Source: Candidatus Micrarchaeota archaeon
GTDB taxonomy: Archaea > Micrarchaeota > Micrarchaeia > Anstonellales > Bilamarchaeaceae
Reading direction: 5' to 3'
Assembly: GCA_016212505.1 (NCBI GenBank)
Contig: JACRGB010000003.1
Location: 27,561 to 91,560 of the forward strand
DNA: 64,000 nucleotides
Part shown: positions 36,112 through 55,300 of the stretch, piece by piece
How the letters are laid out: each line of letters opens with the position of its first letter
How positions within the stretch are numbered: position 1 is the stretch's first letter
Translations under genes and position numbers: made by a program
The notes under the pieces: generated by a model
Seen by the model: only the letters and a program-made list of their open reading frames with translations
Database searches by the model: none
Told to the model about the DNA's origin: nothing

Positions 36112-37611
36112 TCAAATCAGCCTCGTAAGTCCTGCTATTTCTATATCCCCGCCAAAGGTCATGGAAAGCGAACGTATTGCGGCAATAGTGGAAATTATTG
36201 CAAGCAATGAAAAGAACATTGACCAGAAACTAAGCCTTGCAAGGATATCGAGCGGGCCATTTGGTTCCCAGGAAAAATTAATCCAGCTATCTTGCTTGCT
36301 CGCTTGGGAGAGTTGGCCGAACCAGCTATCCCGGTCGGTAGGATCGAACGCTTTTTCTGCCGCGGCAAGCGCTTTCTGCTGTTCTGCAACTACTGCCGGA
36401 TCCTTGCTGGCAGGATCATCACCTGGGCCTGCATTGAATCTGGGAATTAACTTATTGGTGGCTGGATCATTTTTTTCGATAGTTTCAAGATAGGCCAAAT
36501 CATAGGGATTGACCCCTTCCTTGGCAACACCCGAATACCCTTGTATATTTGCAAGAGTCTGCTGAGCACCCCGGGTGTCGAGCTTATTGCCCCCTCCTAT
36601 TACAGGTACAAAACCCAGTATATACATGGTGTTTGCAATTGGAGGGTCGGGATTGAGTTTGCCAAGAGGATTGGCTTTTACATTTAGGGGAGAAACCCAA
36701 TCATCACGGACATTATCCTTGAGCTGGATCATTACCAGCCCGGCAAAAGCATAGAAGGTCGGATAGATGAAATAGAGGGCAATTGCAATTGCAAGCATAA
36801 GGCCACCAAGGCGCCGGGTAAATGTGAATGTACGCAGAAGGGTCCCGGCAACAAAGAACGAAGGGAATATGGCAAGTGCGATAAAGCGCAGGAAAATTTC
36901 CTGCATCTTAGTGATCATAAGGATTTTCATGGCCCATTCAAATGCCAGAGATTTGACATTATTGCCCATTGTGAAGAATCCCCTCCAGGGGTTGAATGTG
37001 ATGAACCCGGTTTTTTCAAAAATAGTTTCAAAGTTTATAGTAAATTCTGCGGCCATAGAAGTCCAGATATAGTCGATATAGGTATTGAATGCAAAAGTAC
37101 TAGTTTCATCAAACACTTCCCGCAGGTGCCAGATGCCCATACGTACAGAACAGGAGGAAATGCCATTGTAAACAGAATATTGGTTTTCAGCAATATCGTC
37201 CCCGCATATGTCTATACACGCATAGTCACGTATGCCATTGTTTACCAGCGGGATCTGACCTGCACGAAATTGTTGGACGTAAGTTGTAGTTGCAGTAGTT
37301 GCGCCAGGGCAGAGGGTCCCAGGAGAAGGTTGGGGATTATTTCCGATACCCTGGTGCGGCATCAGGAGAATAGCCCCATGCACAACACCATCAACAAGCG
37401 GAAGGCTGGTTATTGCAAAAGAAAGGATTATCGCTGAATAAAATAATTCTGCTAGTTCCATTTTGGCCCATGCCTTTATTTTATCGTTCATGAGCATGCT
37501 GCCGATCATATACACTCCGCCAATTAGGCAAGTAACTATTCCGAATGCAATTCCGGCAAAAGCGAGCCAGTCGCCCCAGAACAATTTTATAGTTGTAAAT
37601 ACATCGACCAT
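36112..37611 (-). CDS. Polytopic membrane protein, paralog family member P4 (499 aa)
   Basis: Motifs GSMLMNDKIKAWAKMELAEL and LLRTFTFTRRLGGLMLAIAIALYFIYP. C-terminus GDIEIAGLTRLI. Confidence 0.7.
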   Translation of the reverse strand: MVDVFTTIKLFWGDWLAFAGIAFGIVTCLIGGVYMIGSMLMNDKIKAWAKMELAELFYSAIILSFAITSLPLVDGVVHGAILLMPHQGIGNNPQPSPGTLCPGATTATTTYVQQFRAGQIPLVNNGIRDYACIDICGDDIAENQYSVYNGISSCSVRMGIWHLREVFDETSTFAFNTYIDYIWTSMAAEFTINFETIFEKTGFITFNPWRGFFTMGNNVKSLAFEWAMKILMITKMQEIFLRFIALAIFPSFFVAGTLLRTFTFTRRLGGLMLAIAIALYFIYPTFYAFAGLVMIQLKDNVRDDWVSPLNVKANPLGKLNPDPPIANTMYILGFVPVIGGGNKLDTRGAQQTLANIQGYSGVAKEGVNPYDLAYLETIEKNDPATNKLIPRFNAGPGDDPASKDPAVVAEQQKALAAAEKAFDPTDRDSWFGQLSQASKQDSWINFSWEPNGPLDILARLSFWSMFFSLLAIISTIAAIRSLSMTFGGDIEIAGLTRLI

Positions 37612-37652
37612 ATTGCATCCTCAGAGGTTTACTCATAAATTCTTCAAAATAC

Positions 37653-39416
37653 CTACATTTTCATCAGTATAAATTTCGTCATCGCATTTATGAATGCTAT
37701 AGTGACCATAATTGAGAGTGCGGGCATAAATAATGATAGAAGGGTAAGTACCGCAAAGTGCCGCATGATTATTGTAAATTCCGGCATGGGCAGGAGCCCC
37801 AGTACCCCTTCTGAGAAAAAATTACCCAGTGACTTTTGCACCGCAGTCCCTTTGGGAAGGTATTCGAATATTTTCCCCGGTGCAGTAGCGGGATTAAAGA
37901 AATAGCCAAATGCACCGTATTTTACCGGCCCGCATATTGAGTAAATTAAGGTGTTGGGGCTTTGGTATCCCGAAGGCCCAAGGTCCTCATACGCTTTCTT
38001 ATCGATCAGATAACCCATCGGAAAAACAATTTGGAAGCCTAATGCAAATGCCATAAGGAATGCACCTGCATCGCGGGTGGGCGGGAAAAAGTGCAGGATA
38101 AGCCCCGCAGGGAGGAAAAAATTACCCATAGTAGAATCTATGAAATAGAGAAGGCTGATTTGCGCAGATAAGCTGCCATAAACAGCTACGAGCCCATAGG
38201 AAAGGACATTGGAAATAGAAACAAAAGTATCGATTCCAGGAAAAACCTTATAGGTACGGGTAAGCACGGATTCTCCGATCCTTCTTGCATAAACGCTGAG
38301 CATGGAAGTGCAGGACTGTATCGAGTAAACATCATATATGCCGTTTAGTACTGGATCAAGTGCCTTCTCTTGCAGGAAATTTATTGCGGCAAGGGAAGGC
38401 GAGTTGGTATGGTAAGCATCATTTGCCCAAGCTGAAACGATCTGGCTGCCTACAACGAAAAGTCCTGCCACAAAGAGGACAAGAAGGAATGAGCGGAAAA
38501 GGTTGGAAAGTTCGACATTGAGGTAGCCCTCCCATTCAGGAACCCGGAAAACTTTTGAAACTATATAAGTCAGGAAAATTATCAGGGAAACAAAAAAGAA
38601 TACGTTGATCATCAGGTCAGCGTAGGGAGAAATGGATGCGGCAGTGCCTATTTTTGTCTGAAGTATCGAATCAAATGCGCCACCTTTAGCTAAAAAGACC
38701 TTGAATACGACGAAATAGACTATTGCTACAATAAAAGTACTTGCAAGGAGATTATTCGCAAATCCGGTTGCCCTGGCCCGGGTTTCTGCGCCAAACATCA
38801 TCCCGGCAGCATAGAAAACCGCTGCAAGAATAGCAAAGACGATTGTCAGGAATGCAAGTGAATTTTCGGATATGGTTTTTAGGTCGCTGAAGATTTTTAA
38901 GAAATCGACGGATGATGGCTCGCCACCGGCATTAAGGCTGGGCTGGATGATCGAGAGGAGGAAGAACATTATGATTATTACTAACGCCGAAACACCAACC
39001 GCAGTAAGCATGCTTTCAGTCCAGGTAGATGCTTTTGCTCTTAAGTCTGCACCAAACATCTGGCCAATAACATAAACTGAAGCCGCTATTACGATCATGG
39101 TGATTAGGAGAATCCCCATGACAGAAAGGGCAAAGGGAAGTAGGGAATTAGGGGAACTGTTAAGGGCGGATAAGGGATCAATTGGTGGATTGGCGGCAAA
39201 TGAAAATGAGGGCAGGAGTAGCGATAGAAATAGCACAAGCAGGAAGAGCGAGAAAGGAGTTTTTATGTTTTTTATTATATTGGAATTTGCAAATTCCAAT
39301 GCGTGGAGAAATTCTTTGGAATTTCTCCTGTAGCGAACCGTGTTCGCTACGGACAAATTTTTGCGAAAATTTGTCCTTGTAGTCTTCGTGAAGTCCATTA
39401 ATAGCACCCTTTTCAT
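37653..39416 (-). CDS. Polytopic membrane protein, paralog family member P5 (587 aa; 5' end doubtful)
   Basis: Motifs GQMFGADLRAKASTWTESML and LILHFFPPTRDAGAFLMAFALGFQIVFP. Lacks the GLTR-type C-terminal tail. Its first ~45 codons are made of four tandem DNA palindromes (see repeat feature). Confidence 0.65.
   Translation of the reverse strand: MKRVLLMDFTKTTRTNFRKNLSVANTVRYRRNSKEFLHALEFANSNIIKNIKTPFSLFLLVLFLSLLLPSFSFAANPPIDPLSALNSSPNSLLPFALSVMGILLITMIVIAASVYVIGQMFGADLRAKASTWTESMLTAVGVSALVIIIMFFLLSIIQPSLNAGGEPSSVDFLKIFSDLKTISENSLAFLTIVFAILAAVFYAAGMMFGAETRARATGFANNLLASTFIVAIVYFVVFKVFLAKGGAFDSILQTKIGTAASISPYADLMINVFFFVSLIIFLTYIVSKVFRVPEWEGYLNVELSNLFRSFLLVLFVAGLFVVGSQIVSAWANDAYHTNSPSLAAINFLQEKALDPVLNGIYDVYSIQSCTSMLSVYARRIGESVLTRTYKVFPGIDTFVSISNVLSYGLVAVYGSLSAQISLLYFIDSTMGNFFLPAGLILHFFPPTRDAGAFLMAFALGFQIVFPMGYLIDKKAYEDLGPSGYQSPNTLIYSICGPVKYGAFGYFFNPATAPGKIFEYLPKGTAVQKSLGNFFSEGVLGLLPMPEFTIIMRHFAVLTLLSLFMPALSIMVTIAFINAMTKFILMKM
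39280..39376. repeat. Four tandem perfect palindromes at the P6/P5 junction, two of them the same motifs found upstream of dnaG
   Basis: TTGGAATTT-gc-AAATTCCAA (39280-39299); GGAGAAATTC-tttg-GAATTTCTCC (39305-39328); TAGCGAAC-cgt-GTTCGCTA (39331-39349); GGACAAATTT-ttgcga-AAATTTGTCC (39351-39376). Confidence 0.55.
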
Positions 39417-40690
39417 ACCACTTTTGTTAAACCGACCAATTCAGCTTCACCGCCAATTAGCATAGAAATGCTGCGGTACATTGTCACGGTGATTATTATT
39501 TCCAGGACAGTGGTGAGTATCACAAGCACAATAAATGGTGAAATGGTCCCAACTTCGTTCAATATGAAGTAATAGAGCCCGGCTGAAGAACTCGTAGGAA
39601 GGAAAGTTGATTTGGACCCAAAGAGGCTGGGGTAAAAATCGCCGGTTGTGCCTACCATAAAGAGCCAGATATTTCTTACAGTTGCAGCCAAAGATCCTCC
39701 TGTATTCCAGGCTGCACGAGCCATATTTTTGAGACTGCAAAGCAGACCAGTAACCCCATCACATCCGAGAGTTGGGGTTTTTGTTGCATCTGCAAGCTTG
39801 TCTGCTTCTTGAAATTCCTTGGTGATCGCATCGGTCCTACTCCCCTCCCTCCATTCAGTTATGAGTTTGGTCCAATAACCCTCATCATGATGAGTTGCAA
39901 GGTAAGATGGAGTTTGCGGGGTGTAAACAAAATCCGCTGGTTTGTACATGGAAAAAATCAGATAATGTGAAAAAATTGTGGCAAAGGGAAGGACAAAATA
40001 CATTGCAAAACAAATTGCGAGGATGCTTGAACCTGTGGTCCGGTAAAAGGGAAATGCACGGAGGATGAGGCCAAAGGGAAGGATAATTAATGGGATTGCG
40101 TCTTTAGTGAAAATGAGTATAAATTCCTTGGCCATTAAAACAGTAACAAGATAACTGATAGTCTCTACGATTATGGTGTGGGCATCACTAAGAAGGGTTA
40201 GTCCGGTAAATGGTGCAAATGAAAATGAGATAATGGCTACTGAGGGTATGGGCGAGCTGACCGGGAAACTGACTGTGGAAAGGAAACCTATCAGGGCTTC
40301 AAAAAGATAAAGGTCAATATACTGGGAGAAAAGCTTTTCTTTTAGGATAGTTAACACGCCAAGGGCAAGGTTGATATGTGCAGAGGTATAAACCTGATTT
40401 GGGTTTGCATTATTTATTACCCCACCAAGCCCTGAAGTACTTGATTGCAGCGCACCCTGGACCAGGGCATTTAAGGTGGTATCGAGGCTAAGCCAAAAGA
40501 AAATGATTACTGCAGAAAAAATTAAAGCAGCCAGTTCTTCCTTTGCAATAGCAGTAATTGAAGGGCTTTGTAAAAAATAAGCCACAAGAAATATTGAGCC
40601 GGTTAACCCCGTGGCAAAACCAAGGGAAACAAATATCATAGACCAGGCTGCTGGCGGTAAAGTTATTGCCAATAGCAGGGGAAGTAGCAT
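39413..40690 (-). CDS. Polytopic membrane protein, paralog family member P6 (425 aa), first gene of the locus
   Basis: Motifs AYFLQSPSITAIAKEELAAL and LILRAFPFYRTTGSSILAICFAMYFVLP. C-terminus GGEAELVGLTKVV. Confidence 0.7.
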   Translation of the reverse strand: MLLPLLLAITLPPAAWSMIFVSLGFATGLTGSIFLVAYFLQSPSITAIAKEELAALIFSAVIIFFWLSLDTTLNALVQGALQSSTSGLGGVINNANPNQVYTSAHINLALGVLTILKEKLFSQYIDLYLFEALIGFLSTVSFPVSSPIPSVAIISFSFAPFTGLTLLSDAHTIIVETISYLVTVLMAKEFILIFTKDAIPLIILPFGLILRAFPFYRTTGSSILAICFAMYFVLPFATIFSHYLIFSMYKPADFVYTPQTPSYLATHHDEGYWTKLITEWREGSRTDAITKEFQEADKLADATKTPTLGCDGVTGLLCSLKNMARAAWNTGGSLAATVRNIWLFMVGTTGDFYPSLFGSKSTFLPTSSSAGLYYFILNEVGTISPFIVLVILTTVLEIIITVTMYRSISMLIGGEAELVGLTKVV

Positions 40691-42106: not shown

Positions 42107-42502
42107 TCAATAGTTTTCCGCAGTAATTCCAGGAATCCTTGAAAAATGCTTTACATTTTCAGTTATTATAACGTTTTCTCCATTGGTTAATGCAATTGCG
42201 GCAATTAGAGCATCAGTTTCATTCACATCTTGGCCTTTTTGTTTAAGTTCTGCAGAGATACGCGCAGCACCATCGGTGCTTGTGGCATCTAATTCAAGTA
42301 TGGTTATTGAATCAAGAAAAGCATAAAAAATTTTAAGTTCTTTCTCTTTTACATCGGATTTTTGAAAATATATTCCAACTAGCACTTCAAAAACATTTAT
42401 TCTCGTAGTAAAAACATCTGAAGAAAGTGTTTTTACCTTACGTAGTGCGCTTTGCTTATTTTTTAAAAAATGAATAATGAAGGTCGTATCAAGAACTACC
42501 AT
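42107..42502 (-). CDS. vapC: PIN-domain toxin VapC
   Basis: 131 aa. MVVLDTTFIIHFL plus C-terminal acidic residues. Overlaps the upstream small gene. Confidence 0.8.
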   Translation of the reverse strand: MVVLDTTFIIHFLKNKQSALRKVKTLSSDVFTTRINVFEVLVGIYFQKSDVKEKELKIFYAFLDSITILELDATSTDGAARISAELKQKGQDVNETDALIAAIALTNGENVIITENVKHFSRIPGITAENY

Positions 42503-42732
42503 TTTAGAGGCACCTTTCTCCAGTTTTTCCTTACTTTCTTTACTACGGTTTCCATTTCTTTTGTCTCTTTTTCAGACATAAAGCTCCATGAGCCTGCAAA
42601 GTCCATAAAGTTTTTTTTACTCTTTTGCGGATGTATGAACTTGTGGATCACCTTACTATAACTTTCGCCAGGCCTTTTAAGGGTGGTAAGTTCCTTGTAA
42701 ACTGCATCAGAAATCATTATTGCATGGGCCAT
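42496..42732 (-). CDS. Putative VapB-type antitoxin
   Basis: ~78 aa if started at the Met at 42732 (MAHAIMISDAVYKELTTLKRPGESYSKVIHKFI...). Overlaps the vapC start by 7 nt. Confidence 0.5.
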   Translation of the reverse strand: MAHAIMISDAVYKELTTLKRPGESYSKVIHKFIHPQKSKKNFMDFAGSWSFMSEKETKEMETVVKKVRKNWRKVPLKW

Positions 42733-42847
42733 CAAGTCACCTATATATACATAGTATATATACATTTAAAATAGTTTCGAAAACAGGAGAACTACTAAAT
42801 TTAGGAGAGATAGAAGTAGATTAATGCTATAAATTAATGAAGCAAAA

Positions 42848-43768: not shown

Positions 43769-43880
43769 ACTTGTTCAACCGCTTTTTCATTGCTTGAAGC
43801 TCAAAGGGCCATTACATGTGCAAAGGAATGATGATAAGAACAGATTAAAAATAGGGAAAAGAAGAGAAAAAAAGAAACGA

Positions 43881-45101
43881 CTATCGTTTCTTCTTGCCCA
43901 TGAACATGAATGCCGCACCGCCCACAATAACCACAAGGACGATCAATCCGATTATGATGGGAATAAGAAGATCGGTTTTTGGAGCGGGTTTAGCAACAGG
44001 AGCAGATGGAGCGGATTTTGCCAGCTGGCCTGCAACTGAAGAAACAGATTTGGCAAGGCTCAACGCGGTGGCGTAGTCTCCCTTATTGAATGCAATAACA
44101 GCATCATTTAGTTTTGATTGTAATGAAGAAGTATCCTGGCCTGCTGCTTTTGCTTTTGCAATGTCGCTCCTTGCCTGTGAAATGGCCACTTGGGCGCTTG
44201 ACTGTGCTTCCAGATTAGGGGACGGGTCTTCGGGGGGAGAAAGCGGAACAGGTGTGGGATTAACTGAAGGGGATGAATTGTTTTGCGGAGTAGGTTGGGG
44301 GGTTGGAGCAGGTGTTGGAGTAGGTGTTGGTGATGGAGTCGGGGCAGGTGTTGTTGGTGAAGTTGAGGTATTTGTAGAAGTAGAAGAACTGCTTGATGAA
44401 CTGCCAGAAGAACCAGAAGATGGAGGAGTTATACTCAAAGTAAGTGCAGCAGCACTTATTGTGTTACCGTTAACATCAAAGCTTACTGAACCAGAAGTGG
44501 TTGGAGTTATGGTCCATGAGAGTGAAGAGGAACTTCCACCTGGAATAGAAACTGAACCAGATGTCGAACCACCTGAAATACTAGCTCCGGAAGCACTTAA
44601 AGAATAACTGGCAGTTGCCGTGCTACCACCAGTATTGGTTATAGTAACAGAGTAAGTAACCGACTGGGTTGAAGTTAATGTAGATGATGAAGGGGAGTTT
44701 TTAGAAACTGAGAACTGATCTCCAGCCACAAACTCAATTGCCTGCTGGGTACCAGTTGCAGGGGTGCCAGATGATGGAGTAACTTGAGCATTAAAATTAT
44801 AAGTTCCTGCAGATGAAGCAGTGATAGTAAAAGTTTTAGAATCGCCAGTCTGAACTCCGGAATATTGATACGAAGAAGATGCAGAGGGATCAGTTACGCT
44901 GAGTCCGGAAGTAAGATCATAAAGTTGGAGGGTTGCGCCACTACAATCAGAGTCTCCGCCAACGATTACAGTTACAGATACGGAATTACCAACAGTAGCG
45001 CTTGCAGCAGCAGATATTGAAGAAATGCTGCAAGTTGAAAAAGCCGCTAGAGATAGCAATAACAAACCAAAAAGAAAAACTTTAGTAGACATCATAATCA
45101 C
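43881..45101 (-). CDS. Surface (S-layer anchor-like) protein: signal peptide, Ser/Thr-rich domain, Pro-Thr linker, coiled coil, C-terminal TM anchor
   Basis: 406 aa. Starts MIMMSTKVFLFGLLLLSLAAFS. Linker TPAPTPSPTPTPTPAPTPQPTPQ. C-terminus LLIPIIIGLIVLVVIVGGAAFMFMGKKKR. Overlaps the upstream large surface gene by 4 nt (ATGA). Confidence 0.7.
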   Translation of the reverse strand: MIMMSTKVFLFGLLLLSLAAFSTCSISSISAAASATVGNSVSVTVIVGGDSDCSGATLQLYDLTSGLSVTDPSASSSYQYSGVQTGDSKTFTITASSAGTYNFNAQVTPSSGTPATGTQQAIEFVAGDQFSVSKNSPSSSTLTSTQSVTYSVTITNTGGSTATASYSLSASGASISGGSTSGSVSIPGGSSSSLSWTITPTTSGSVSFDVNGNTISAAALTLSITPPSSGSSGSSSSSSSTSTNTSTSPTTPAPTPSPTPTPTPAPTPQPTPQNNSSPSVNPTPVPLSPPEDPSPNLEAQSSAQVAISQARSDIAKAKAAGQDTSSLQSKLNDAVIAFNKGDYATALSLAKSVSSVAGQLAKSAPSAPVAKPAPKTDLLIPIIIGLIVLVVIVGGAAFMFMGKKKR

Positions 45102-48100
45102 CTGACAAAAACATTAATCATCCTATCCATTGAGTTCGTATCCTCAATAGAACCAGTATTGTTAATTGTAAAGTAGACCTGGGTAGGTGGACCGAAATTG
45201 GAAGAAGGCCATACATCTCCGGATAAACCACGTGGACTGAGAGTAATTAACGCGCAGCCTGAAGGGCCAGTTGCAATAGAACTTATTGATTGATTGGTAT
45301 ACGGATCAAACATCGCCAATGCAGTAGTCTGAGGCGGAGAATTCTGTGAGAACGTCATTGCAGTCGCATTTGTGATGTTTGCATTTGATAGAGGAAGTGG
45401 CGGGAAGGCATAGCTTTCAGCGCAAACCAGCACAGAAACATTTTGAGCAGAGTTATTGACATTTGCAAATGGAGTTGTGTCAGTTCTTGCCCTATAACTT
45501 CCGAATTTTAGGAAAGATAGATTACCGGAACTTGAATTTTGCATTACTGCAAGTTTTAGCTGGTCCTGGAATGGGATCTGGAAGAACTGGAATACAGATG
45601 AAATGGTGCAGTTTGCGCCATCGCAGAATGCGGGAGTGGAGGTGTTCATATTGCTAACATAATTTATTGAAATGGACTTATCAGTTGAATTGAAAGTGAC
45701 ATTGGAGGTCTTGTTTCCAAAATTGTAGGAGAAGAGGGAGAGGTTTGTGGCGTTGAAAAGTTCTACGTTGCCTGTAGATGCATTTGAAAGGGTTACATTC
45801 ATATCATTAGTTACTTCCCGTATTTGCCTGAAATTATCAGCACCAAGGGTAGAGGCATAAGGCCTGAAGTTACGGGCCACAATAGTCGGATTTGTTGACA
45901 TACCGAATTGGTTGCCTCCGGGGCTGGAACTGTCGTTATAGGTAGTGCCGTTGATTCTCCAGAATATAGTGTACACTCCGGAAGTCGTTAGGTTAAGGGT
46001 AAGAAGCGCAAGGCCATTTGAGTCAGTAACATTTGTAACTACAGTATAATTAGAAGGATCGACAAGAGTCCCAATTCCAAAACTATTTCCAGTGCGTCTA
46101 TATAACGAGGTTATGTTTGCAGTAGAGCCATTGGCTGATAGAGATCCAGCTTTGAATACTAACGGGACAGTTATGTTGGTATTGACACCATATTCACCTA
46201 GATTAAACATGGAAGAAAATAATGAGCCAGAACTTATTGGTCCAGAATAAACTGCCCTGAAATAGCTGCAGCTGTCAATTGAAACCAACGAATAATTGGC
46301 ACCGATAGAACGATTTGTCACATTAACGATAGTGAAGGCAGAAGCATTGTTCATACTATTCGGAGTTGTTTTATTTCGTACAAGTAAAGTATCAAATCGA
46401 CCGGTATTGGCAGAATCAAGAATCATAAATGATACGTTCGGGAAGAATGAGGTATCAGCGGGTTGATTCATCGTAACATCCTTTAATGGAATGAAGAAAT
46501 AGTCATTTTGGCCGCCGAATGCAGAAATATTATTATAACAAACAGTATCACTGAAACTAAGGTTGCCACCTAGAAGAGTTTGATTAATAAATGACATATT
46601 CCATCCATATTGAAGCAACTGCATATCCATGAACTGTGGTATTGCCATGCCGCCATTCCCTTGTCTAAGATCGCCACCGTATAAAGGCACATAAGCAAGA
46701 ACATTTGCTACGGTAATATGATAAAAGATAGTGGAACGATCACCGCTTGCACCAACCACTTCAATCATTATATTATTTGAACCTTTTGATATGCTCGTTG
46801 GTATTGTCATATTAAGTTCATATAGCATAAATGAGCGGTTATCAAAGAATCGAGTATTATTTCGAAGATAGGACATATTATAAGAGGTTACTGTAGTTGG
46901 AGGAAACGGACCTTCTTTGTTCATTCTTATTGAAGTTATATTTGTAAGATTGGCAAAGGAGGCAATTCTTAGAGTTATATTTGAACCAATGTTCCCAGTC
47001 TGCGGTTGTTGGAAAGGGTTGCTCTGATTTCCAGCATCTGGACCAAACGGTATATACGTTTCTAAACTAGAACCAACTGGAACGCCGCTATCAAAGTCTT
47101 GGCAAGCGACATCGCCAGAAGTACAAACTCTAGGTCTTATGGCAAGGAAGCCACTCCCTGATCCCCATGAGGAAGCTTGAGAGCCATTTGATGTGGTGAA
47201 GTTTTGCGGGCAAATTATTAGAGAGCCGCCGCTTTGGTTAAGACTTGCATTTAAGGTACTCGCACTAGAACTAAGAGAATCAGGCCTTTGACCTCCTGAA
47301 CCTCCGAAGAAATTCATAAATGATACTTGTGGGACAGATAGAGTGCCTGCAGTAAAGTTAGAGCCATTTGTTAAACCTACAGAAGTTGTGTTGAGTAAAA
47401 TACAGCCAGATTTTGAAACTTGGAAGAAAAAACCTCCGCCAGAAGATGATGTCCCAACGGGGGTGGCCTGAATATTGGCACTAATCACACTGCAAGAGAA
47501 GAAACCAGGAATAATCTCATTCCTAACTACTCCACCATCAGGATAAGAAGCATTAAACATGACAACATATCGACCTGGAGGCAAAGAGCAACTATAGGAA
47601 ATGTTTGCAGCAATTGAACCATTTGAATCACTAGTACTCGAAGCATTCATAGAAAGACAGGAAGAGACATCTCTGCCACTTAATTCAGAAATTACTTTAG
47701 ATAAATTACTTGTAAATGATACGCCACTTATGGCTGAACCAGTTTCTACGAGATTTACTCTACCATTAAAGGCTACAATGTCGCCAGAAGCGCAACGAAT
47801 TTGACCAGAACCCCCAAATCCGCCAGGTCCCCCAGGAGGCGGAGGATTTTCGCCAGTTTTATTTGCAAGGCCACCACCAACAGCAGGTGCCATAAAACCA
47901 ACAAGGCGTTTTGCAATTATCGGAACATTTGAAGTGAGACTGTCTCCATAAATCGTAGTTGCCGAAACACCTACGAGCATAATATCGGTATAATTAGGAG
48001 GAAGAGTTATTGTAACTGTGTTTGTAGTATTACTTACACTATTGTTGAATCCATACTGACCAGGCAAAATATTTGTACCAGAAACAAAGTGTAAAATATT

Positions 48101-49624
48101 TGTGGCATTCATCATGGAAAATGCATTTGAGATTTCTGCACCCTCGTTGGAAATATTATAAAGTTGGAATAGTAAAGTAATATTAGATCCTGGTTTAAGA
48201 AGCATCTGGAAAGAGTCTTGGCCAGAGCCTCCTGAACTTAATGGAACTACTTTTAGAAGATATCTTTGAACTTGAAAAGTATACACTCCAGAATAATTTC
48301 TTCCCTGATAGGTAACTTGCGCAGTGGTTTTATAGAATCCAGTATCATTTGGTGCAGCAAAAGTCAGTGCACAGATAGTTGAACCCAGATAACTAGTATT
48401 AGTAAAGTTGAAACTTCCCACATAAGATCGATAATCAGTATTATTTTGAAGACGAAGTAGAGAAGTTACAGTTACTGCTGAACAATTAACGGTATTATTA
48501 TCTGAAGGGAAAGAACTATGAGATAGGAATTGATTATTACTGAGATTGGTGAGCAGGAAAAACAAAGTCATATTAGCACCTGGTTTTGCGCCATTAAATC
48601 CAAGGTCAGATAATTCAACAAATTTGCCTTCATCTGCATTTGTAGGTTGAAGAGAGGCAGATAACGAGGTTATACTAAATTTAAATGATGATTCCAAAAC
48701 GTTACTAGAAACAGTTGATTGGGCAATTAGTTTATACGTACCTTCGGTAGAAGGAAGAGTTATGTTTTTCTCATAAACACCTGGAGAAGTTTCACTAAAA
48801 CTACTAATTGAGGAAGCAGTACCATCTGGATAGGTTAAAGTTGCAGCCACGGTTTGACTACTAAATACCGAACCATTTGAATTTGATCTAAGAAGAACAC
48901 TGACAGTAGCATTTTCAGAAGGTGAAAATAAATTTGAAGCAAAACCGGATCTCTTTAGGGTTACGATAAGTTGACTATCTGAGATTAAATTAATGAAAAG
49001 AGTTCCCGCACCATGGCCAATTACAATAAAGTAAGACCCTGAATTGTTAGTAGGAGTAACTGTGTAATTTATATTTCCATTAGAAGCACTGCCATTTGAA
49101 AGATTGGTAAAGACCCAGTCAGTCCCATTAGCAAAACTTGATGCTGAAAATGCATTGATATTTGGAAGGATATTAGCAACTCCCCCGCCAGAGGAATTTG
49201 TAAGATTTATCGATATATTGAATGGTGTTCCTGGAGAAAAGGAAGGCGAACCAATAAAAGCAATTGAAACATTTGATATGTTAGAAACAATTAAGGGAAA
49301 TATAACAGTTAGTGCGGAAGAATTTGAGGTAATTGTTATGTTATAGATACCTTCTGAAGAAGGTGAAGTCAGATACACCCTAAATGTTCCGTCACTTCCG
49401 CTCAGATTGGATGCAACAGACATGCTACTATTTGAAGAATTACCTATAGTTACGGTTACATTAACATTAGAATAATTTTGTGAAGATGAGTTCAGTGCCT
49501 GGCCTCCCACACTAAAAGCAGTGGAAGGGGCAACAAACGGGGGGGCATTTGGTATAACCGCATCAGCAAAAGAGACAGCACAAAAAACCACTAAAACCGA
49601 AAACAATAATAAAATTGGGCGCAT
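45098..49624 (-). CDS. Large (1508 aa) secreted, heavily N-glycosylatable surface protein (S-layer/canopy-like)
   Basis: Signal peptide MRPILLLFSVLVVFCAVSFADA. Very dense N-x-S/T sequons (NSSNSSMSVASNLSGS, NITITSNSS, NISNVSIAF...). Ser/Thr/Asn/Gly-rich and beta-type composition. No TM. Confidence 0.8.
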   Translation of the reverse strand: MRPILLLFSVLVVFCAVSFADAVIPNAPPFVAPSTAFSVGGQALNSSSQNYSNVNVTVTIGNSSNSSMSVASNLSGSDGTFRVYLTSPSSEGIYNITITSNSSALTVIFPLIVSNISNVSIAFIGSPSFSPGTPFNISINLTNSSGGGVANILPNINAFSASSFANGTDWVFTNLSNGSASNGNINYTVTPTNNSGSYFIVIGHGAGTLFINLISDSQLIVTLKRSGFASNLFSPSENATVSVLLRSNSNGSVFSSQTVAATLTYPDGTASSISSFSETSPGVYEKNITLPSTEGTYKLIAQSTVSSNVLESSFKFSITSLSASLQPTNADEGKFVELSDLGFNGAKPGANMTLFFLLTNLSNNQFLSHSSFPSDNNTVNCSAVTVTSLLRLQNNTDYRSYVGSFNFTNTSYLGSTICALTFAAPNDTGFYKTTAQVTYQGRNYSGVYTFQVQRYLLKVVPLSSGGSGQDSFQMLLKPGSNITLLFQLYNISNEGAEISNAFSMMNATNILHFVSGTNILPGQYGFNNSVSNTTNTVTITLPPNYTDIMLVGVSATTIYGDSLTSNVPIIAKRLVGFMAPAVGGGLANKTGENPPPPGGPGGFGGSGQIRCASGDIVAFNGRVNLVETGSAISGVSFTSNLSKVISELSGRDVSSCLSMNASSTSDSNGSIAANISYSCSLPPGRYVVMFNASYPDGGVVRNEIIPGFFSCSVISANIQATPVGTSSSGGGFFFQVSKSGCILLNTTSVGLTNGSNFTAGTLSVPQVSFMNFFGGSGGQRPDSLSSSASTLNASLNQSGGSLIICPQNFTTSNGSQASSWGSGSGFLAIRPRVCTSGDVACQDFDSGVPVGSSLETYIPFGPDAGNQSNPFQQPQTGNIGSNITLRIASFANLTNITSIRMNKEGPFPPTTVTSYNMSYLRNNTRFFDNRSFMLYELNMTIPTSISKGSNNIMIEVVGASGDRSTIFYHITVANVLAYVPLYGGDLRQGNGGMAIPQFMDMQLLQYGWNMSFINQTLLGGNLSFSDTVCYNNISAFGGQNDYFFIPLKDVTMNQPADTSFFPNVSFMILDSANTGRFDTLLVRNKTTPNSMNNASAFTIVNVTNRSIGANYSLVSIDSCSYFRAVYSGPISSGSLFSSMFNLGEYGVNTNITVPLVFKAGSLSANGSTANITSLYRRTGNSFGIGTLVDPSNYTVVTNVTDSNGLALLTLNLTTSGVYTIFWRINGTTYNDSSSPGGNQFGMSTNPTIVARNFRPYASTLGADNFRQIREVTNDMNVTLSNASTGNVELFNATNLSLFSYNFGNKTSNVTFNSTDKSISINYVSNMNTSTPAFCDGANCTISSVFQFFQIPFQDQLKLAVMQNSSSGNLSFLKFGSYRARTDTTPFANVNNSAQNVSVLVCAESYAFPPLPLSNANITNATAMTFSQNSPPQTTALAMFDPYTNQSISSIATGPSGCALITLSPRGLSGDVWPSSNFGPPTQVYFTINNTGSIEDTNSMDRMINVFVR

Positions 49625-49640: not shown

Positions 49641-49656
49641 TAAAATATATAAAGCT
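49641..49656 (-). promoter_or_regulatory. TATA-box-like element for the surface-protein operon
   Basis: The minus strand reads cTTTATATATTTTa, ~20-30 nt upstream of the ATG at 49624. Consistent with an archaeal TATA at about -26 and a leaderless or short-leader mRNA. Confidence 0.35.
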
Positions 49657-49752: not shown

Positions 49753-50154
49753 TTATTTTGTTTGTATTCGTCTCGCAACCTCTTTCAGATGCCCGAACCG
49801 TCTGTCCATATCATTCTGCATTTCGCTCAATGTCTGCTCGAGGTTATCTCCTCGAAGACGATAGATGCGTCCGTCCCGAATTACTAGGCCAGATCGCTGG
49901 AACATATTAAGATGATAAATAACTGCAGCCTGACTTACTTCGCTTAGTTCCATAATATCTTTAGAAGAAATACCAGTTCCTTGCCCGCTTGCTTTGACCA
50001 AAGCCCGGAAAACTAAAAGGCCAACGTCGTCCCGTTCATCCCCAAGCCCAAGACACTGATATATATAGTCTATTTCAGCATTCTCATCCTGCTCCTGCTG
50101 AGGGAGGGCGATATAACGGATAATGATCTGACGGTAATATTTTCTTTGCGTCAT
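49753..50154 (-). CDS. Winged-helix (ArsR-like) transcriptional regulator, divergent from the grpE-dnaK operon
   Basis: 133 aa. HTH region SKDIMELSEVSQAAVIYHLNMFQRSGLVIRDGRIYRL. Confidence 0.6.
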   Translation of the reverse strand: MTQRKYYRQIIIRYIALPQQEQDENAEIDYIYQCLGLGDERDDVGLLVFRALVKASGQGTGISSKDIMELSEVSQAAVIYHLNMFQRSGLVIRDGRIYRLRGDNLEQTLSEMQNDMDRRFGHLKEVARRIQTK

Positions 50155-50206: not shown

Positions 50207-50806
50207 TTGTTAAAAAAATCAACAGAACATGAAATGGTGATTACTATAGCTGATGATAAAAAAACAATAGGAAATCAAAAATTTGATGAACTCAAAGCAC
50301 CACCAGAAGAAAAGTTAGTTGAACATGAAAAACAAGACTTGCTAGAAGAAAAGTCCGGAACGCATGAGAAAGATCAGAAACTCAAGGAGTTAGCAGATCG
50401 AATGTTAAGAATGCAGGCAGATTTTGAAAATTACAAAAAAAGGACTGCCAAGGAAAACGAATCGATGCGCGAATTTGCAAATGTGGATTTGCTTCTCAAA
50501 CTACTAACTATTGTGGATGATTTTGAAATCGCCTTAGACCATGTTGAGCAGTCCAAATCCAAAGAGTTCAAAACAGGAATGGAGCTTTTGTATGCCAAAT
50601 TTTTAGACTTACTAAAAAAAGAAGGAGTAGACGGGATGAAGGTAGCCGGAGAAAAATTTGATCCATACAAACATGAGGCGCTTCGGCAAGGTGAAGGTGA
50701 GGAAGGGAAGATAGTTGAAGTAATGCAAAAAGGATATTTGTTTAGGGGAAAAGTACTCCGGCATGCTAAAGTAGTTGTCGGAATGGGCCAGGGTGAGAAA
50801 AAGTAA
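50207..50806 (+). CDS. grpE: GrpE nucleotide exchange factor
   Basis: 199 aa. RMQADFENYKKRTAKE and the C-terminal beta-domain (GYLFRGKVLRHAKVVV) are GrpE hallmarks. Confidence 0.9.
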   Translation: MLKKSTEHEMVITIADDKKTIGNQKFDELKAPPEEKLVEHEKQDLLEEKSGTHEKDQKLKELADRMLRMQADFENYKKRTAKENESMREFANVDLLLKLLTIVDDFEIALDHVEQSKSKEFKTGMELLYAKFLDLLKKEGVDGMKVAGEKFDPYKHEALRQGEGEEGKIVEVMQKGYLFRGKVLRHAKVVVGMGQGEKK

Positions 50807-51011
50807 GAGGTGTTGGCATGAATCGCCAGATTATGAGCATGGATAAATTAGCTGAAATGGGATTCGATAGCGAAAAGCAGTTAATAGAATATTTGAAAAT
50901 AATGCGATCACTGCAAAAGCAAAAAATACTGGTGGGTATCGCAAGTTAGTTTGGTTATGCTAAATTGAATTATGTTAAAAAAAATGAAGTGTAATAAGGA
51001 GGGAAATTTTT

Positions 51012-52877
51012 ATGGGAAGAATAATTGGTATTGATTTAGGAACAAGTAATTCAGCAGCAGCATATTTGGAAAATGGAAGGCCGAAAATTATTCCAAGTGC
51101 TGAAGGAATAACTCAATATGGGAAAGCATTTCCAAGTTATGTTGCACTTACAAAAGATGGCCAAAGAATAATTGGTGAACCAGCCAGAAGGCAGGCAGTA
51201 ACAAATGCTGAAGGAACGGTTTCAGCATTCAAAAGAAAAATGGGAACCGACTATAAATACCAGATTTTTGGGAAAGAATATCGGCCGCAGGAATTATCTG
51301 CATTTATTTTGCAGAAGATAAAAAAAGATGCAGAAGAGTTCTTGGGCGAAACTGTTGATAAAGTTGTGATCACAGTTCCTGCTTACTTTAATGATAATCA
51401 GAGGCAGGCGACCAAAGATGCCGGGTCAATTGCAGGTTTAGAAGTGACCAGGCTAGTTAACGAGCCAACTGCAGCATGCCTTGCATATGGGTTGGATAAA
51501 GTCGGCAAGGACATGAAGATCCTTGTTTTCGATTTAGGCGGAGGAACCTTAGATGTAACCATCATGGATTTTGGTGGGGGCGTTTTCGAAGTAAAATCCA
51601 CAAATGGAGATACACAATTAGGCGGAACGGATATGGATAGAATAATTTCAGAATATCTTACCGATCAATTTAGGAAGGAGAGTGGTGTCGATGTCAGTAA
51701 AGATAAGCAAGCACAGCGCAGAATCTTGGAAGCAGCTGAGAAGGCGAAAATTGAGTTATCAACAACTCTTGAATCTGAGGTCAATTTGCCTTTCCTTACT
51801 TCAGTAAATAATGAGCCGAAACATTTTGTGCACAAATTAACCAAGGCAAAACTTGAGGACCTTATAAGGCCGATTATTGAAAAATGCCGTGGCCCAATTG
51901 AGCAGGCAATGAGGGATGCAAAACTATCGCCTGCCCAGATTGACAAAATAATTATGGTCGGTGGTCCGACAAGAATGCCAATTGTGCAGAAATTCGTTGA
52001 AGATACTGTTGGCAAGAAAGTGGAAAGAGGAATCGACCCGATGGAATGTGTTGCAATGGGCGCAGCAATCCAGGGAGGAGTTCTTTCTGGCGAAGTAAAA
52101 GACATTCTTTTGTTAGATGTTACTCCACTTTCATTAGGCCTTGAAACAATGGGTGGCGTTTCAACAAAATTGATTGAAAGGAATACAACAATACCAACCA
52201 AAAAGAGCCAGGTATTCTCTACCGCAAGCGACATGCAGACCGCAGTCGATATCCACATCTTACAGGGCGAGCGACCGATGGCAAAGGACAATGTTTCACT
52301 AGGTAAATTTACCTTAGTTGGGATACCACCAGCGCCACGAGGAGTACCGCAAGTTGAGGTTACATTTGATATTGATGCAAATGGTATTTTGCATGTTAGC
52401 GCAAAAGATAAGGCTAGCAACAAGGAACAGAGTATGAGGGTTAGTTCGCCAATGAAAATGTCTGATAGCGAAATAAAAGCAAAAATGGGAGACGCGGATA
52501 AATTTGCTGAAGAAGATAAGAAAGCATTTGAACTGGCGACTGCCAAAAACGAAGCTGAATCCATGCTTTATTTGGTCAAGAAAACTGAGGAAGAATTCAA
52601 GGCTAAAATGTCCAAGGAGCAGTTTGATAAAATTGAAGAAGCCAAAAAGAGACTTGAAGATGCTTTAATTAGCGAAGACGTTGCGAAGATTCGAAGCGAA
52701 ACTGAAGCGCTCAAAAAAGTTTTGGAAGAAGTTGGCGGATCATTCTACCAGCAGGCAGGAGGCCCGAACATGGGCGGAGAGGGACAGCCACCTCCGGGCG
52801 GAAACGAAGGAGGGGAAAAGCAGGGAAACGGGCCGGACGAAAAAGTTGTCGACGGGAAGTACGAGAATGTTAAATAG
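51012..52877 (+). CDS. dnaK: Chaperone DnaK (Hsp70)
   Basis: 621 aa. Motifs [34 protein letters not shown]-terminal G/P-rich tail. Confidence 0.97.
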
Positions 52878-52925
52878 GATTAACTATTAGAAATTTCGAA
52901 AATTGGATGAGGAAAGAGGCAAAAA

Positions 52926-53573
52926 ATGTCCAAAAAAAAGAATAACGCAAAAGAATCAATTCCTGGAATTGTCGACGAGTTAAAGAAACTTAACACGAAA
53001 ATGGGCAATATTGAAAAAAATATGCGAAAAGATAACTTAGACAGGTTGTTTGGCAAACTCGAATTTCCTGCAACATTCTTTTTAGGAATTTTGACCCTCT
53101 GGATACTCTATAATCAAAACGCCATACTTCAATATGAGAAGACTCCGATTGTCGATGTGGCTTATTCTTCTTGCCCTCTTAGCTTTACAGGCTATTATGT
53201 TCTGGATGACATTACCTTGCTTCCGAGAGGAGTACGAACCACCCACAAAGTGAAGATAGAATCGAATGAATTAAATAAAGCGTGCGTAAACATTTTCGGT
53301 TCGCCCATTAATACCACGCCTCCAGTTGGTTGTGAGTATGACAAGGCAGAAACATTTTGGTTTTCTGCGGCAGATAATCAAATAAACTATTATTTCATCA
53401 TCTCTCCGAAAAATTGGGGAGACTATCTCCAATATAATATTAGTTACGAATATCACGATAGAATTCAGTTTGGGGATAACAGTTCTATAGGCAAAGCGTA
53501 TCGAACTTGCGAGTATAAGTCTACGAATGGTACATACATATTAAAAAATCAAAGTGGATGGGTATTCGGTTAA
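52926..53573 (+). CDS. Hypothetical membrane-anchored protein inserted between dnaK and dnaJ
   Basis: 215 aa. Charged N-terminus, one TM (FPATFFLGILTLWILY), then a Cys/Tyr/Asn-rich extracytoplasmic domain. Confidence 0.5.
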   Translation: MSKKKNNAKESIPGIVDELKKLNTKMGNIEKNMRKDNLDRLFGKLEFPATFFLGILTLWILYNQNAILQYEKTPIVDVAYSSCPLSFTGYYVLDDITLLPRGVRTTHKVKIESNELNKACVNIFGSPINTTPPVGCEYDKAETFWFSAADNQINYYFIISPKNWGDYLQYNISYEYHDRIQFGDNSSIGKAYRTCEYKSTNGTYILKNQSGWVFG

Positions 53574-53593
53574 AATTTATATGAGGCGAAAGT

Positions 53594-53908
53594 ATGCCAA
53601 AAAACTACCGTTCTGTGCTTGGAGTTTCCAAAGATGCTAGCGAAGAGGACATAAAAAAAGCATACCGAAAACTGGCACTCTTGTACCACCCGGACCGAAA
53701 TCCAGGTGATAAAAAAGCTGAAGAAAAATTCAAAGAGATAAGTGAAGCTTACGCAATACTTACTGGAAAAGAAAAAGAAGCTCCGGAAATAATTGTAAGA
53801 AGATCGCGAAGCAGGGCAAGAGAAGGCGAAATATTCTCCTGGCAAACCGAAGTGGTCCAGATATGGGACGAGATAATAAATCAAAGGGACAATAACATGT
53901 ATCGCTAA
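53594..53908 (+). CDS. J-domain-only protein (short DnaJ-like co-chaperone)
   Basis: 104 aa. [53 protein letters not shown] contains the HPD motif. Confidence 0.75.
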
Positions 53909-54154
53909 GATAAAGGTAAGTGAGAGGATGAAAAAACCCATACAAAAACCCGCTGATTTGATGGATGCCATGGATCGGTTAGTCAGTAAAACCAAAACAC
54001 CAGATATATTGGAAAAACTTAAGAAAAGCAGGCAGGAATGGTAGGCTGAAAATAGCATTAGTTAGTTTTCCTCGAAAATGTTTTTTTAAATGACCTAACT
54101 AGGGATTCGGGTTGGATGGTTGGGTAAATATGAAACAGTAGATATGATGAATTT

Positions 54155-55300
54155 GTGATATTTATGGCCGAAAAAAGAGATTATTATGAAGTCCTAGGTG
54201 TCGCGAAGGCGGCCAACAAAGAGCAGATCAAGGATGCTTATCGGAAATTAGCGCTAAAATACCATCCTGACCGAAACCCAGGCGATAAGGCATCAGAAGA
54301 AAAATTCAAGGAGCTTAGCGAAGCATATGCTGTTCTTAGTGATGATGGGAAGAGAAGTCAGTACGACCAATATGGCCATGCTGGCTTTGACCAAAGATAT
54401 TCGCAGGAAGATATTTTCCGAGGTGCGGATTTTTCTGATTTTGAGGATATGGTGAAAGGATTTGGTTTTGGTGGCGGCGGAGGTTCGCCATTTGGGGACA
54501 TGTTCGGTTCAATGTTTGGTGGCGGATTTGGCCAAGGGGGAAGGCGAGGCGAGTATGGAGCGGATCTGCAAACCAGAGTGGAAATAACTCTTGAAGAAGC
54601 AGCAAAAGGCGTAAAAAAAGAAATTAGTTATCATCATTCTAAGGCGTGCAACAAGTGTTCGGGAAGCGGAAGCGAACCAGGGAGTAGAAGGACAACCTGC
54701 AGCACCTGCCATGGCCGTGGCCAAGTGCAGCAAGCGCGGCGTGCTGGGCCAATGGCATTTTACACAGTAACCACCTGCAACAAATGCAGTGGAGAGGGCC
54801 AGATGGTTGAGAAACCATGCAAAAACTGTAATGGTTCTGGGAAAATGAGCGGGAATGAGCACATCAACGTGGATATTCCTGCAGGAATTGAAAACGGGAT
54901 GCGCATGAGGCTCGAAAACCTAGGTGAATTTGGCAAAGACGGATCCGGCGACCTTTATGTAGATGTTTATGTCAAAAAACACCAGACATTTGAGCGGGAA
55001 GGGGAAAATATTTGGATAAATAAGGAAATTACTTTCCCAGAAGCAGCACTTGGCGGAGAAGTTGAAGTGCCAACACTCTTTGGAAAGGCAAAACTAAATG
55101 TCCCGGTTGGAACAGCGTCGCATACGGTTTTCCGCCTTAAGGGAGAGGGAATGCCAAAGCTTAGGAGAGGCGGAAAAGGGGATGAGATGGTTCGGGTAAT
55201 TGTTAGCATCCCAAAAAAGCTGACAAAAAAACAAAAGGAACTTTTGGCAGAATTTGAAAAAGAAGGGGAAAAGAAAAGCGGGATATTCGGGGTATTTTAA
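54155..55300 (+). CDS. dnaJ: Chaperone DnaJ (full-length type I)
   Basis: J domain with HPD, G/F-rich region ([23 protein letters not shown]) and four CxxCxGxG zinc-finger repeats, plus the C-terminal domains. The likely start is the Met at 54164 ([13 protein letters not shown]). Confidence 0.95.

Follow-up and report, generated by a model that had tools for sequence, protein, structure and literature searches.

A conserved micrarchaeal gene pair predicted to encode a sequon-dense secreted protein and a membrane-anchored partner, with SlaA/SlaB-like organization but unrelated sequences

Because DPANN archaea are attached to the host cells on which they live, their surface proteins decide host recognition, nutrient access, and environmental resistance. 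The window analysed here, a stretch of 64,000 nucleotides from a Candidatus Micrarchaeota archaeon, contains two adjoining genes on the minus strand, A and B (Table 1). An earlier note had likened them to slaA and slaB of the Sulfolobales, which encode the canopy and the membrane stalk of the S-layer, and had proposed that they might form the cell envelope. The locus thus raises the question whether A and B build the S-layer lattice of this lineage or a different surface structure. We consider it probable that they constitute a single operon and encode a surface glycoprotein of two components, in which B would tether the glycosylated A to the membrane.

Table 1. Features of the A/B locus, given as positions in the window.
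Feature	Position	Strand	Description
Gene A	45098..49624	-	1508-aa secreted all-beta protein; 92 N-glycosylation sequons, 8.7% charged residues, 17 Cys, no membrane anchor
A signal peptide	49559..49624	-	aa 1-22, MRPILLLFSVLVVFCAVSFADA, predicted cleavage between MRPILLLFSVLVVFCAVSFADA and V; Sec-type; from hydrophobicity windows
A MG2-like (macroglobulin/Ig-like) beta-sandwich	48716..48931	-	aa 232-303; sole part of A with a database domain signal
A Gly/Pro-rich low-confidence hinge	47807..47878	-	aa 583-606, GGGLANKTGENPPPPGGPGGFGGSG; divides the N-terminal third from the remainder
Gene B	43881..45101	-	403-406-aa type-I membrane protein; GTG start 45101, ATG alternatives 45095 and 45092
B two tandem Ig-like beta-sandwich domains	44433..45032	-	aa 22-123 and 128-221; AF2 model, seven-sequence alignment
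B Ser/Thr/Pro-rich linker	44217..44432	-	aa 222-293; predicted disordered, pLDDT 37-57
B membrane-proximal helical module	44016..44216	-	helices aa 294-317, 323-337, 341-360; pLDDT about 84-93
B C-terminal transmembrane helix and cytoplasmic KKKR tail	43884..43967	-	helix aa 377-398; Kyte-Doolittle windows up to 3.05; helix in model
TATA-like box TTTATATA	49646..49653	-	begins 29 nt 5' of the A ATG
Hairpin and T-rich run TTTCTTTTTTTCTCTTCTTTT	43869..43895	-	hairpin overlaps the B stop codon

Both open reading frames were confirmed, and they represent a genuine two-gene cassette: a B homologue lies directly 3' of A in all eight family loci that could be read (8/8), at 22–44% identity of the A proteins and with gaps of 2–25 nt or an overlap between the genes. 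The junction in the window reads ...AGGTGATTATGATG and does not contain the 4-nt ATGA overlap described before. If B starts at GTG, it overlaps the stop codon of A in a GTGA, and if it starts at one of the ATG codons a gap of 2–5 nt results. Accordingly, the length of 406 aa first given for B applies to the GTG start only, and initiation at the ATG 6 or 9 nt further on would yield 404 or 403 aa, the latter being the gene call in the Logan assembly. Gene callers partly miss or truncate B. The TATA-like element reported upstream of A is indeed present, and its distance from the start codon implies a leaderless or near-leaderless transcript. The motif TTTATATA alone is not enriched in the window (3 occurrences vs. 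3.9 expected); in eight of nine family loci, comparable boxes precede the A gene by 28–60 nt. At the other end of the cassette, the hairpin and T-rich run likely mark the end of the transcript. In their content of charged residues (8–9%), A and B are outliers among the window genes, the others having 12–40% and most of them 20–33%. No paralogue of either gene was found in the window.

Protein A fits the earlier description as secreted, anchorless, and dense in sequons. A scan for further hydrophobic segments revealed none of the length of a transmembrane (TM) helix besides the signal peptide. Its N-x-S/T sequons amount to 6.1 per 100 aa, compared to 2.3 in the second-densest ORF of the window and a median of 0.44, and their number (92) by far exceeds the 36.0 ± 5.0 obtained by shuffling its own composition (maximum 54 in 2000 shuffles; z about 11). 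A is among the most sequon-dense proteins that we have encountered. A homologue with 26% identity, encoded in a genome of 57% GC, shows a sequon excess of z about 13. A Sec signal peptide combined with sequon enrichment over composition, both kept in relatives, is what characterizes N-glycosylated archaeal surface proteins in general, and a cultivated Micrarchaeon expresses genes for N-glycosylation.

The relatives of A form an uncharacterized family of 53 clusters, which was recovered by exhaustive HMMER search; together with B it represents a previously unannotated protein-pair family, conserved throughout the lineage. Word-indexed searches with A, B, or an alignment of 45 A sequences were swamped by low-complexity candidates and yielded, besides A itself, a single genuine homologue of B, one partial match at the domain level, and a few weak matches of low complexity, and an alignment of six A sequences retrieved one GTDB locus only. 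The 45 aligned members are collinear across their full length (about 1280–1810 aa) and contain 50–96 sequons each; most have a signal peptide, and none has a C-terminal anchor or TM segment. Eight cysteines are conserved in the family, and the full alignment has no conserved stretch of 7–10 residues. In 25 alignment columns a sequon occurs in at least 60% of the 45 members, while mean column identity is 22%, and many of the predicted glycosylation positions are more conserved than their surroundings. Other giant proteins encoded in related loci are not relatives of A.

What kind of protein might A be? Its structure model (pLDDT 76.6) is all-beta and consists of a string of Ig/MG-like sandwiches, with only three helices of at least four residues, which span 6, 8, and 4 residues. 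The hinge is modelled with a pLDDT below 50 (model residues 264–287), and its G/P-rich stretch is retained in the family consensus. Pfam MG2 matches the A of the window with an E-value of 4.6e-5 and 25 of 33 family members with a best E-value of 4.4e-12, and the top Foldseek matches include CD109, alpha-2-macroglobulin, A2ML1, TEP1, and complement C3/C5 (E-values down to 1e-16). With these proteins A shares tandem MG/Ig-like beta-sandwiches, which would suit a protease trap of the alpha-2-macroglobulin type in archaea, attached to the membrane through B in the manner of bacterial membrane-associated macroglobulins. However, the TM-scores of the Foldseek matches reach only 0.15–0.21, with HYDIN-type Ig arrays scoring equally well, and the profile of A matched in the PDB a single 70-aa domain, the MG2 domain of a bacterial alpha-2-macroglobulin, with an E-value of 0.03. 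Moreover, the all-beta model has no helical thioester domain (TED), the CxEQ thioester motif (searched as C[GLA]EQ) does not occur in A, and bait or CUB architecture is lacking as well. Because TED and thioester motif are missing we reject an alpha-2-macroglobulin identity, and a protease trap of this type seems highly improbable.

Most of the features previously assigned to protein B are present, namely the signal peptide, the Ser/Thr-rich composition (33% S+T), the TPAPTPSPTPTPTPAPTPQPTP linker, a TM segment at about aa 375–400, and the terminal KKKR. The helical segment, however, is not the short coiled coil that had been proposed, as the model predicts three helices of 24, 15, and 20 aa. 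This AF2 model has a pLDDT of 66 and was built on a two-sequence alignment; domain numbering in Table 1 is counted from the ATG at 45095. In a seven-sequence alignment, the B family is conserved only in its N-terminal pair of Ig-like domains and in the TM anchor, and the TM segment with its basic tail occurs in all seven homologues. Foldseek assigned the Ig-like domains to generic tandem Ig domains; they may be the docking site for A. The S/T/P-rich linker probably acts as an extended spacer and is possibly O-glycosylated. The cysteine after the signal peptide (…AFSTC) could suggest a lipoprotein, but in five of seven homologues it is accompanied by a second cysteine about 30 aa further on, and both are missing in the homologue from locus L006. 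Since the two residues co-occur and are absent together, a domain disulfide appears more likely than a lipobox. A weak profile match to archaeal Fusexin1 (E-value 0.006), which covers one Ig-like domain, was judged to reflect generic Ig similarity.

That A has no anchor would also agree with its free release from the cell, for instance as a soluble protein for binding or scavenging, with B being an unrelated membrane protein merely located on the same transcript. This we regard as unlikely, because the genes have stayed adjacent, overlapping or nearly abutting, in every readable locus despite the divergence of the A proteins, and the conserved part of B is its distal ectodomain, with no enzymatic or transport module.

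The preferred reading, a tethered two-component glycoprotein, shares its plan with SlaA/SlaB, and here the comparison drawn in the earlier note holds for both gene order and topology. In either system a large, anchorless, sequon-heavy, and beta-rich protein is encoded first, and a tightly linked, co-directional small anchor gene follows, presumably in the same transcript. The second protein, of ~400–470 aa, starts with a signal peptide and beta-sandwich domains, which a spacer connects to a type-I TM anchor at the C-terminus. The proteins themselves are not recognizable as SlaA or SlaB, as the note had also stated. Neither the single sequences nor the profiles of A and B matched an S-layer family in Pfam, NCBIfam, or the PDB, and phmmer as well as the 45-sequence profile revealed no relationship of A to SlaA at E-values up to 10 among all PDB chains, which we take to include the SlaA structures. 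The suggested comparison of structure models did not link A to SlaA either, which is absent from the top 50 Foldseek matches of the Ig/MG-like A model. A long (>100 aa) trimeric coiled-coil stalk as in SlaB was not found in B, which instead has the disordered linker and three short helices, a module that is interchangeable in the B family. SlaA contains about 31 sequons in 1424 aa, so that the sequon density of A is about three times higher. The likeness is thus one of logic and not of ancestry, the proteins being unrelated.

Such a pair could still be the actual S-layer of this lineage, a two-component lattice with A as canopy and B as stalk, having arisen by convergence and replacing the S-layer protein known from other Micrarchaeota. 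The pair corresponds to the SlaA/SlaB plan in gene order, in size (1508 + ~404 aa), in topology, and in its heavy sequon load, it is strictly conserved, a canonical TATA box lies at leaderless distance, and all-beta Ig-like architectures are typical of archaeal S-layer proteins. The A proteins are strictly collinear and vary little in size, which suits a protein that builds a lattice or complex more than a rapidly evolving adhesin, and on this account the S-layer reading stays alive. However, the Micrarchaeota S-layer protein with experimental support belongs to another family, the SLP_Mh/Micr_00292 type, of about 870–980 aa and with S_layer_N/MSTP-like domains. Proteins of this type are reported in Micrarchaeum, Fermentimicrarchaeum, Anstonella, and all near-complete genomes examined by Gfrerer et al.; of 49 Micrarchaeota genomes, 38 have a homologue of SLP_Mh, and the 11 without one are in keeping with a replacement.

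Like the SLP_Mh (Micr_00292), NEQ300, and MSTP-like S-layer proteins of DPANN archaea, and in the same phylum as SLP_Mh, A would be a secreted, N-glycosylated surface protein rich in beta-sandwiches. In contrast, SLP_Mh-type proteins measure about 870–1000 aa and contain S_layer_N/S_layer_C or MSTP-like domains, whereas A exceeds them in length 1.5-fold and is paired with a dedicated partner encoded downstream. S_layer_N (PF05123), S_layer_C (PF05124), and MSTP/DUF1608 were found in none of 33 A-family members at E-values up to 0.01, and A was therefore ruled out as an SLP_Mh-type protein. No SLP-type gene, and no protein with S_layer_N/C domains, was seen in the window and about 13 kb of adjoining sequence past its ends, which would favour a lattice of A and B; the sole S_layer_C match there is sub-threshold and lies in a 442-aa polytopic membrane protein. 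This view covers about 84 kb of the genome, window and adjoining sequence taken together. Two further points speak against a lattice: DPANN genomes encode several sequon-rich Ig-fold surface proteins other than the S-layer protein, and B has no long oligomerizing coiled coil.

Given the reports of SLP_Mh-type proteins throughout the phylum, the proposal that A and B form the envelope lattice is disfavoured, and we regard it as a possible but doubtful reading. Similarly tentative is the broader notion of an S-layer or second outer glycoprotein layer that arose independently of SlaA/SlaB and replaces or overlies the MSTP-like protein. In such a layer, a hyper-glycosylated protein of 160 kDa would serve as canopy and a membrane protein dedicated to it as stalk; the MSTP-like protein is regarded as universal in the phylum. 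For SLP_Mh a stalk partner has been suggested, its mode of anchoring being explicitly listed as unknown. We lean towards A/B being an accessory or second surface structure alongside an SLP_Mh-type S-layer, which possibly serves host contact. If so, the pair is a candidate host-contact device; if the lattice reading is true, the canopy-plus-stalk design evolved twice. In both cases Micrarchaeota enrichments can be probed for A and B specifically, by glycoproteomics, with antibodies, and by cryo-ET fitting. A 2024 study stated that the structure of a DPANN S-layer had yet to be solved.

A comparable pair of DPANN proteins has been proposed for Nanobdella aerobiophila, where MJ1_0160 (SlaA-like) and MJ1_0707 (SlaB-like) would be the assembly and anchoring subunits of the S-layer. 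That proposal was made from the Ig-like folds and the sequons and from whether a C-terminal TM segment is absent or present, and the S-layer assignment derives from transcript abundance, MJ1_0160 being the top transcript and MJ1_0707 the 12th. Compared by description only, the two systems differ in that the Nanobdella genes lie apart, judging by their numbering, and 13–17 sites are predicted as opposed to 92 in A.

For the tethered glycoprotein that we favour, the following model can be drawn up from the predicted features. A would leave the cell through the Sec pathway and lose its signal peptide, and dozens of its sequons may be N-glycosylated by the archaeal oligosaccharyltransferase. The chain probably folds into roughly a dozen successive Ig/MG-like beta-sandwich domains, which disulfides would stabilize. 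As A has no anchor of its own, it would depend on B, whose C-terminal helix is predicted to reside in the membrane with the KKKR in the cytoplasm. A variable spacer, in the window B the ~70-aa S/T/P linker plus the small helical module, would hold the two conserved N-terminal Ig-like domains off the membrane, where they may bind A non-covalently and retain it on the cell. Together, A and B would form a glycan-rich, weakly charged element of the outer coat that follows the canopy-plus-stalk logic of SlaA/SlaB with unrelated proteins.

Within the B family the stalk next to the anchor is exchanged between two modules. Relatives of B show a DUF4398-like signal at the helical module (DUF4398 with an E-value of 3e-5 in the homologue from L012), and this module is missing from the homologues in L006, L007, and L009. 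In its place, the homologues from L006 and L009 contain a bona fide PGF-pre-PGF domain (PGF_pre_PGF, TIGR04213; E-values 5e-28 and 9e-34, respectively) just outside the anchor, a domain shared with the PGF-pre-PGF/PGF-CTERM surface glycoproteins of Euryarchaeota. The presence of this surface-glycoprotein domain marks the B family as cell-surface anchoring proteins. Unlike the euryarchaeal proteins, every B protein terminates with a plain TM segment and a basic tail and has no PGF-CTERM sorting signal, and the B of the window has the helical module. In L004, a neighbouring surface protein of 1542 aa shows the same helical signal near its C-terminus, which suggests that the module can also be fused to a large ectodomain.

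The gene of the large secreted protein (A) and that of its membrane-anchored partner (B), which lies directly downstream, are tightly coupled, as the earlier note had claimed and as their junction (AGG TGA TT ATG ATG) bears out. The ATGA overlap described there was slightly wrong: a start of B at GTG gives a GTGA overlap with A, and two alternative ATG codons would leave gaps of 2 or 5 nt. In an independent assembly, B was called at 403 aa. The TATA-like element reported ahead of A is present, and a hairpin and a T-run are found downstream of B. As a whole, the two-gene observation was confirmed with respect to ORFs, signal peptides, anchor and sequon load. Neither A nor B has a paralogue in the window. 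A winged-helix regulator (ArsR/MarR-like, sub-threshold) is encoded directly upstream of A on the same strand.

Features of the A/B pair, of related loci (L-numbers, other retrieved loci) and of the surrounding window
Feature	Position	Strand	Remarks
ORF A	45098-49624	minus	1508 aa
ORF B	43881-45101	minus	406 aa if counted from GTG
TATA-like element TTTATATA	49646-49653	minus	first base 29 nt ahead of the ATG of A
B, two beta-sandwiches	aa 22-123, 128-221		B model
B, disordered linker	aa 222-293		B model
B, three confident helices	aa 294-360		B model
B, TM helix	aa 377-398		B model
Giant predicted surface proteins near A/B	L004 7538-12166; L006 9850-14249; L009 1142-5887, 12366-16433; L007 193-4776
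B-family gene	L002 5563-6783
B-family gene	L004 5433-6923
Winged-helix regulator	49753-50154	minus	133 aa
S_layer_C-signal protein and its 437-aa neighbor	1283-2611; L011 11351-12664	minus	442 aa
Six related membrane proteins, then a 1873-aa protein	26516-40690	minus	366-587 aa
VapB-like antitoxin, VapC toxin	42107-42765	minus	89 aa, 131 aa
Second RHH/PIN pair	13091-14655 gap		seen in L011
GrpE-DnaK-DnaJ cluster	50207-55300	plus	bacterial-type
ORF within chaperone cluster	52926-53573		215 aa, 2.3 sequons per 100 aa
Pilin-like proteins	18165-22056	minus

The large protein was described as secreted, anchorless and dense in glycosylation sequons, and each of these features was recovered. A starts with a Sec-type signal peptide (MRPILLLFSVLVVFCAVSFADA), has no second TM-length hydrophobic segment across its whole length, and contains 92 N-x-S/T sequons vs 36.0±5.0 in shuffles of its own composition (2000 shuffles, maximum 54). 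This corresponds to 6.1 sequons per 100 aa, compared with 2.3 in the runner-up ORF of the window. Both A and B are poor in charged residues (8–9% vs 12–40%, mostly 20–33%, in the other window genes) and rich in Ser, Thr and Asn (together 34–37% vs 8–28%).

A is identical to HY988_00815, a hypothetical protein of a Candidatus Micrarchaeota archaeon. Word-indexed homology searches were swamped by low-complexity candidates; the family emerged when 1.84 billion representatives were scanned exhaustively with HMMER, which gave 53 clusters, 42 of which have E ≤ 1e-30. It is unannotated and not represented by any Pfam or NCBIfam model, and all three of its named members are designated ‘Candidatus Micrarchaeota archaeon’. 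The 45 aligned members (1282–1807 aa, mostly 1400–1620) are collinear with the query over almost the full length; most possess an N-terminal hydrophobic leader, none has a C-terminal TM segment, and every one contains 50–96 sequons. Despite a mean column identity of only 22%, a sequon is kept in at least 60% of these members at 25 alignment columns (for example N481 in 44, N691 in 43 and N892 in 42), and a homologue with 26% identity on a contig of 57% GC has 89 sequons where 26±5 are expected. Because the excess holds in this homologue and so many sequon columns are conserved, we interpret the sequon load of A as selected for and not as a by-product of composition. The alignment also has eight conserved Cys columns, consistent with extracellular disulfides.

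An AF2 model of A (aa 320–1508; alignment of 46 sequences; pLDDT 76.6, pTM 0.66) is essentially all-beta, with about nine predicted strand clusters of sandwich size; the linkers between them are of low confidence and include a conserved Gly/Pro hinge (aa 583–606). The N-terminal 320 aa gave weak Ig, MG2 and Invasin-D3 signals, and MG2 was matched in 25 of 33 family members. Foldseek against PDB retrieved only generic Ig/MG arrays (HYDIN, CD109, alpha-2-macroglobulin, complement) with TM-scores ≤0.21. An alpha-2-macroglobulin-like trap, which such matches could bring to mind, was rejected, since a helical thioester domain is missing from the model and a CxEQ motif from the sequence.

B starts with a signal peptide and ends in a strong TM segment plus KKKR. 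Its model (pLDDT 66, built on a 2-sequence alignment) yielded generic tandem Ig matches in Foldseek. The best PDB match of the B-family profile (alignment A4), an Ig-like domain of archaeal Fusexin1 (7P4L, E 0.006), was likewise judged generic Ig similarity, and a relationship to Fusexin1 was discarded. Conservation in the family is confined to the N-terminal pair of Ig-like domains and, at the other end, to the TM helix with its basic tail. Between them, the B proteins of the window, L001, L002, L004 and L012 carry a Ser/Thr/Pro linker and a helical DUF4398-like module; those of L006 and L009 have extra beta domains instead, among them a genuine PGF-pre-PGF domain (E 5e-28 and 9e-34).

The two genes travel together. 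P0002, the one B homologue found by search (33% identity), comes immediately after the gene of a 1500-aa homologue of A, and for the closest A relatives, where gene callers list no B, a six-frame search placed B right after A (E 6e-89 and 8e-33). In all eight loci with readable downstream sequence A is followed by B, with gaps of 2–25 nt or an overlap. This synteny makes it unlikely that A is a free exoprotein unrelated to B, anchorless as it is. The simplest interpretation has B retaining a secreted, glycosylated A. A would be N-glycosylated after secretion and held at the cell surface by the conserved distal Ig-like domains of B, whose variable stalk and TM helix would give distance and anchorage. 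An N-glycosylation system is expressed by a cultivated Micrarchaeon. A 1542-aa surface protein neighboring the pair in L004 also gives a helical DUF4398-like signal close to its C-terminus. This suggests the same module fused to a large ectodomain and would fit B providing it in trans. We consider a tethered glycoprotein of this general kind the probable mechanism, with a leaning toward an accessory or second surface structure.

Public calls over the B-family gene of L002 consist of small opposite-strand ORFs only, and that of L004 was called as two opposite-strand ORFs plus a 232-aa C-terminal part. The Ser/Thr-rich composition is probably behind these failures, and the anchor subunit is therefore under-annotated in databases. 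In several relatives the pair lies beside other giant predicted surface proteins, including a DUF11/CLIPPER protein and subtilisin-like S8 proteases (1355–1527 aa) with Ig or fn3 domains, which suggests surface-protein islands. A itself is unrelated to the other giants of the related loci.

The earlier note had likened the pair to SlaA/SlaB, the canopy and stalk of the Sulfolobales S-layer, although not recognizably so in sequence. The pair does match slaA-slaB in the order of its genes, in size and topology and in glycosylation load, but B lacks the long coiled-coil stalk and A has no detectable homology to SlaA. When PDB, Pfam and NCBIfam were searched with sequences and profiles, neither protein matched an S-layer family, in line with that caveat, and the proposed fold comparison gave no link, SlaA being absent from the top 50 PDB matches of the A model. 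For the Micrarchaeota, the S-layer protein with experimental support is SLP_Mh (Micr_00292), a highly abundant, glycosylated 101 kDa protein with an S_layer_N-type domain and homologs in 38 of 49 Micrarchaeota genomes, including every near-complete one. A structural survey identified MSTP-like S-layer proteins (873–978 aa) in Micrarchaeum, Fermentimicrarchaeum, Anstonella and another Micrarchaeota archaeon, and Nanobdella has several sequon-rich Ig-fold surface proteins that are not highly expressed and not the S-layer. Since the literature names another S-layer protein for the phylum and SlaA/SlaB features are missing, we regard a true lattice as unlikely. The pair would represent a new variant of the secreted glycoprotein plus membrane stalk design, non-homologous to known ones; it touches on how DPANN envelopes are built and how S-layers are anchored, both open questions, and no finding contradicts current understanding.

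The window and about 13 kb adjoining its ends encode no S_layer_N or S_layer_C protein; the sole signal is a sub-threshold S_layer_C match (PF05124, E 8.6e-4) in the ~180-aa ectodomain of a polytopic membrane protein with a signal peptide. Just beyond the edge of the window it is adjoined by a gene of similar size (437 aa). Elsewhere, six multi-pass membrane proteins that are related to one another are encoded in a row, all with the motif LLRAFP(F/P)TR..G and with GLTK(L/V)(I/V) as their C-terminal end; they are followed by a 1873-aa protein without signal peptide, and none of the seven has a Pfam or NCBIfam match. A VapB-like antitoxin and a PIN-domain VapC toxin are encoded in the interval from the aspartyl-tRNA synthetase gene to the A/B cassette, and a second RHH/PIN pair is located beside a class I tRNA synthetase gene. 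The chaperone cluster is split by an ORF of unknown function. Several small proteins with pilin-like N-termini (e.g. MRGQYFSFDAIVASVIFVLALVALL; DUF7287/DUF7288 matches), encoded together with a 539-aa protein without Pfam match, may constitute a type IV pilus-like locus.
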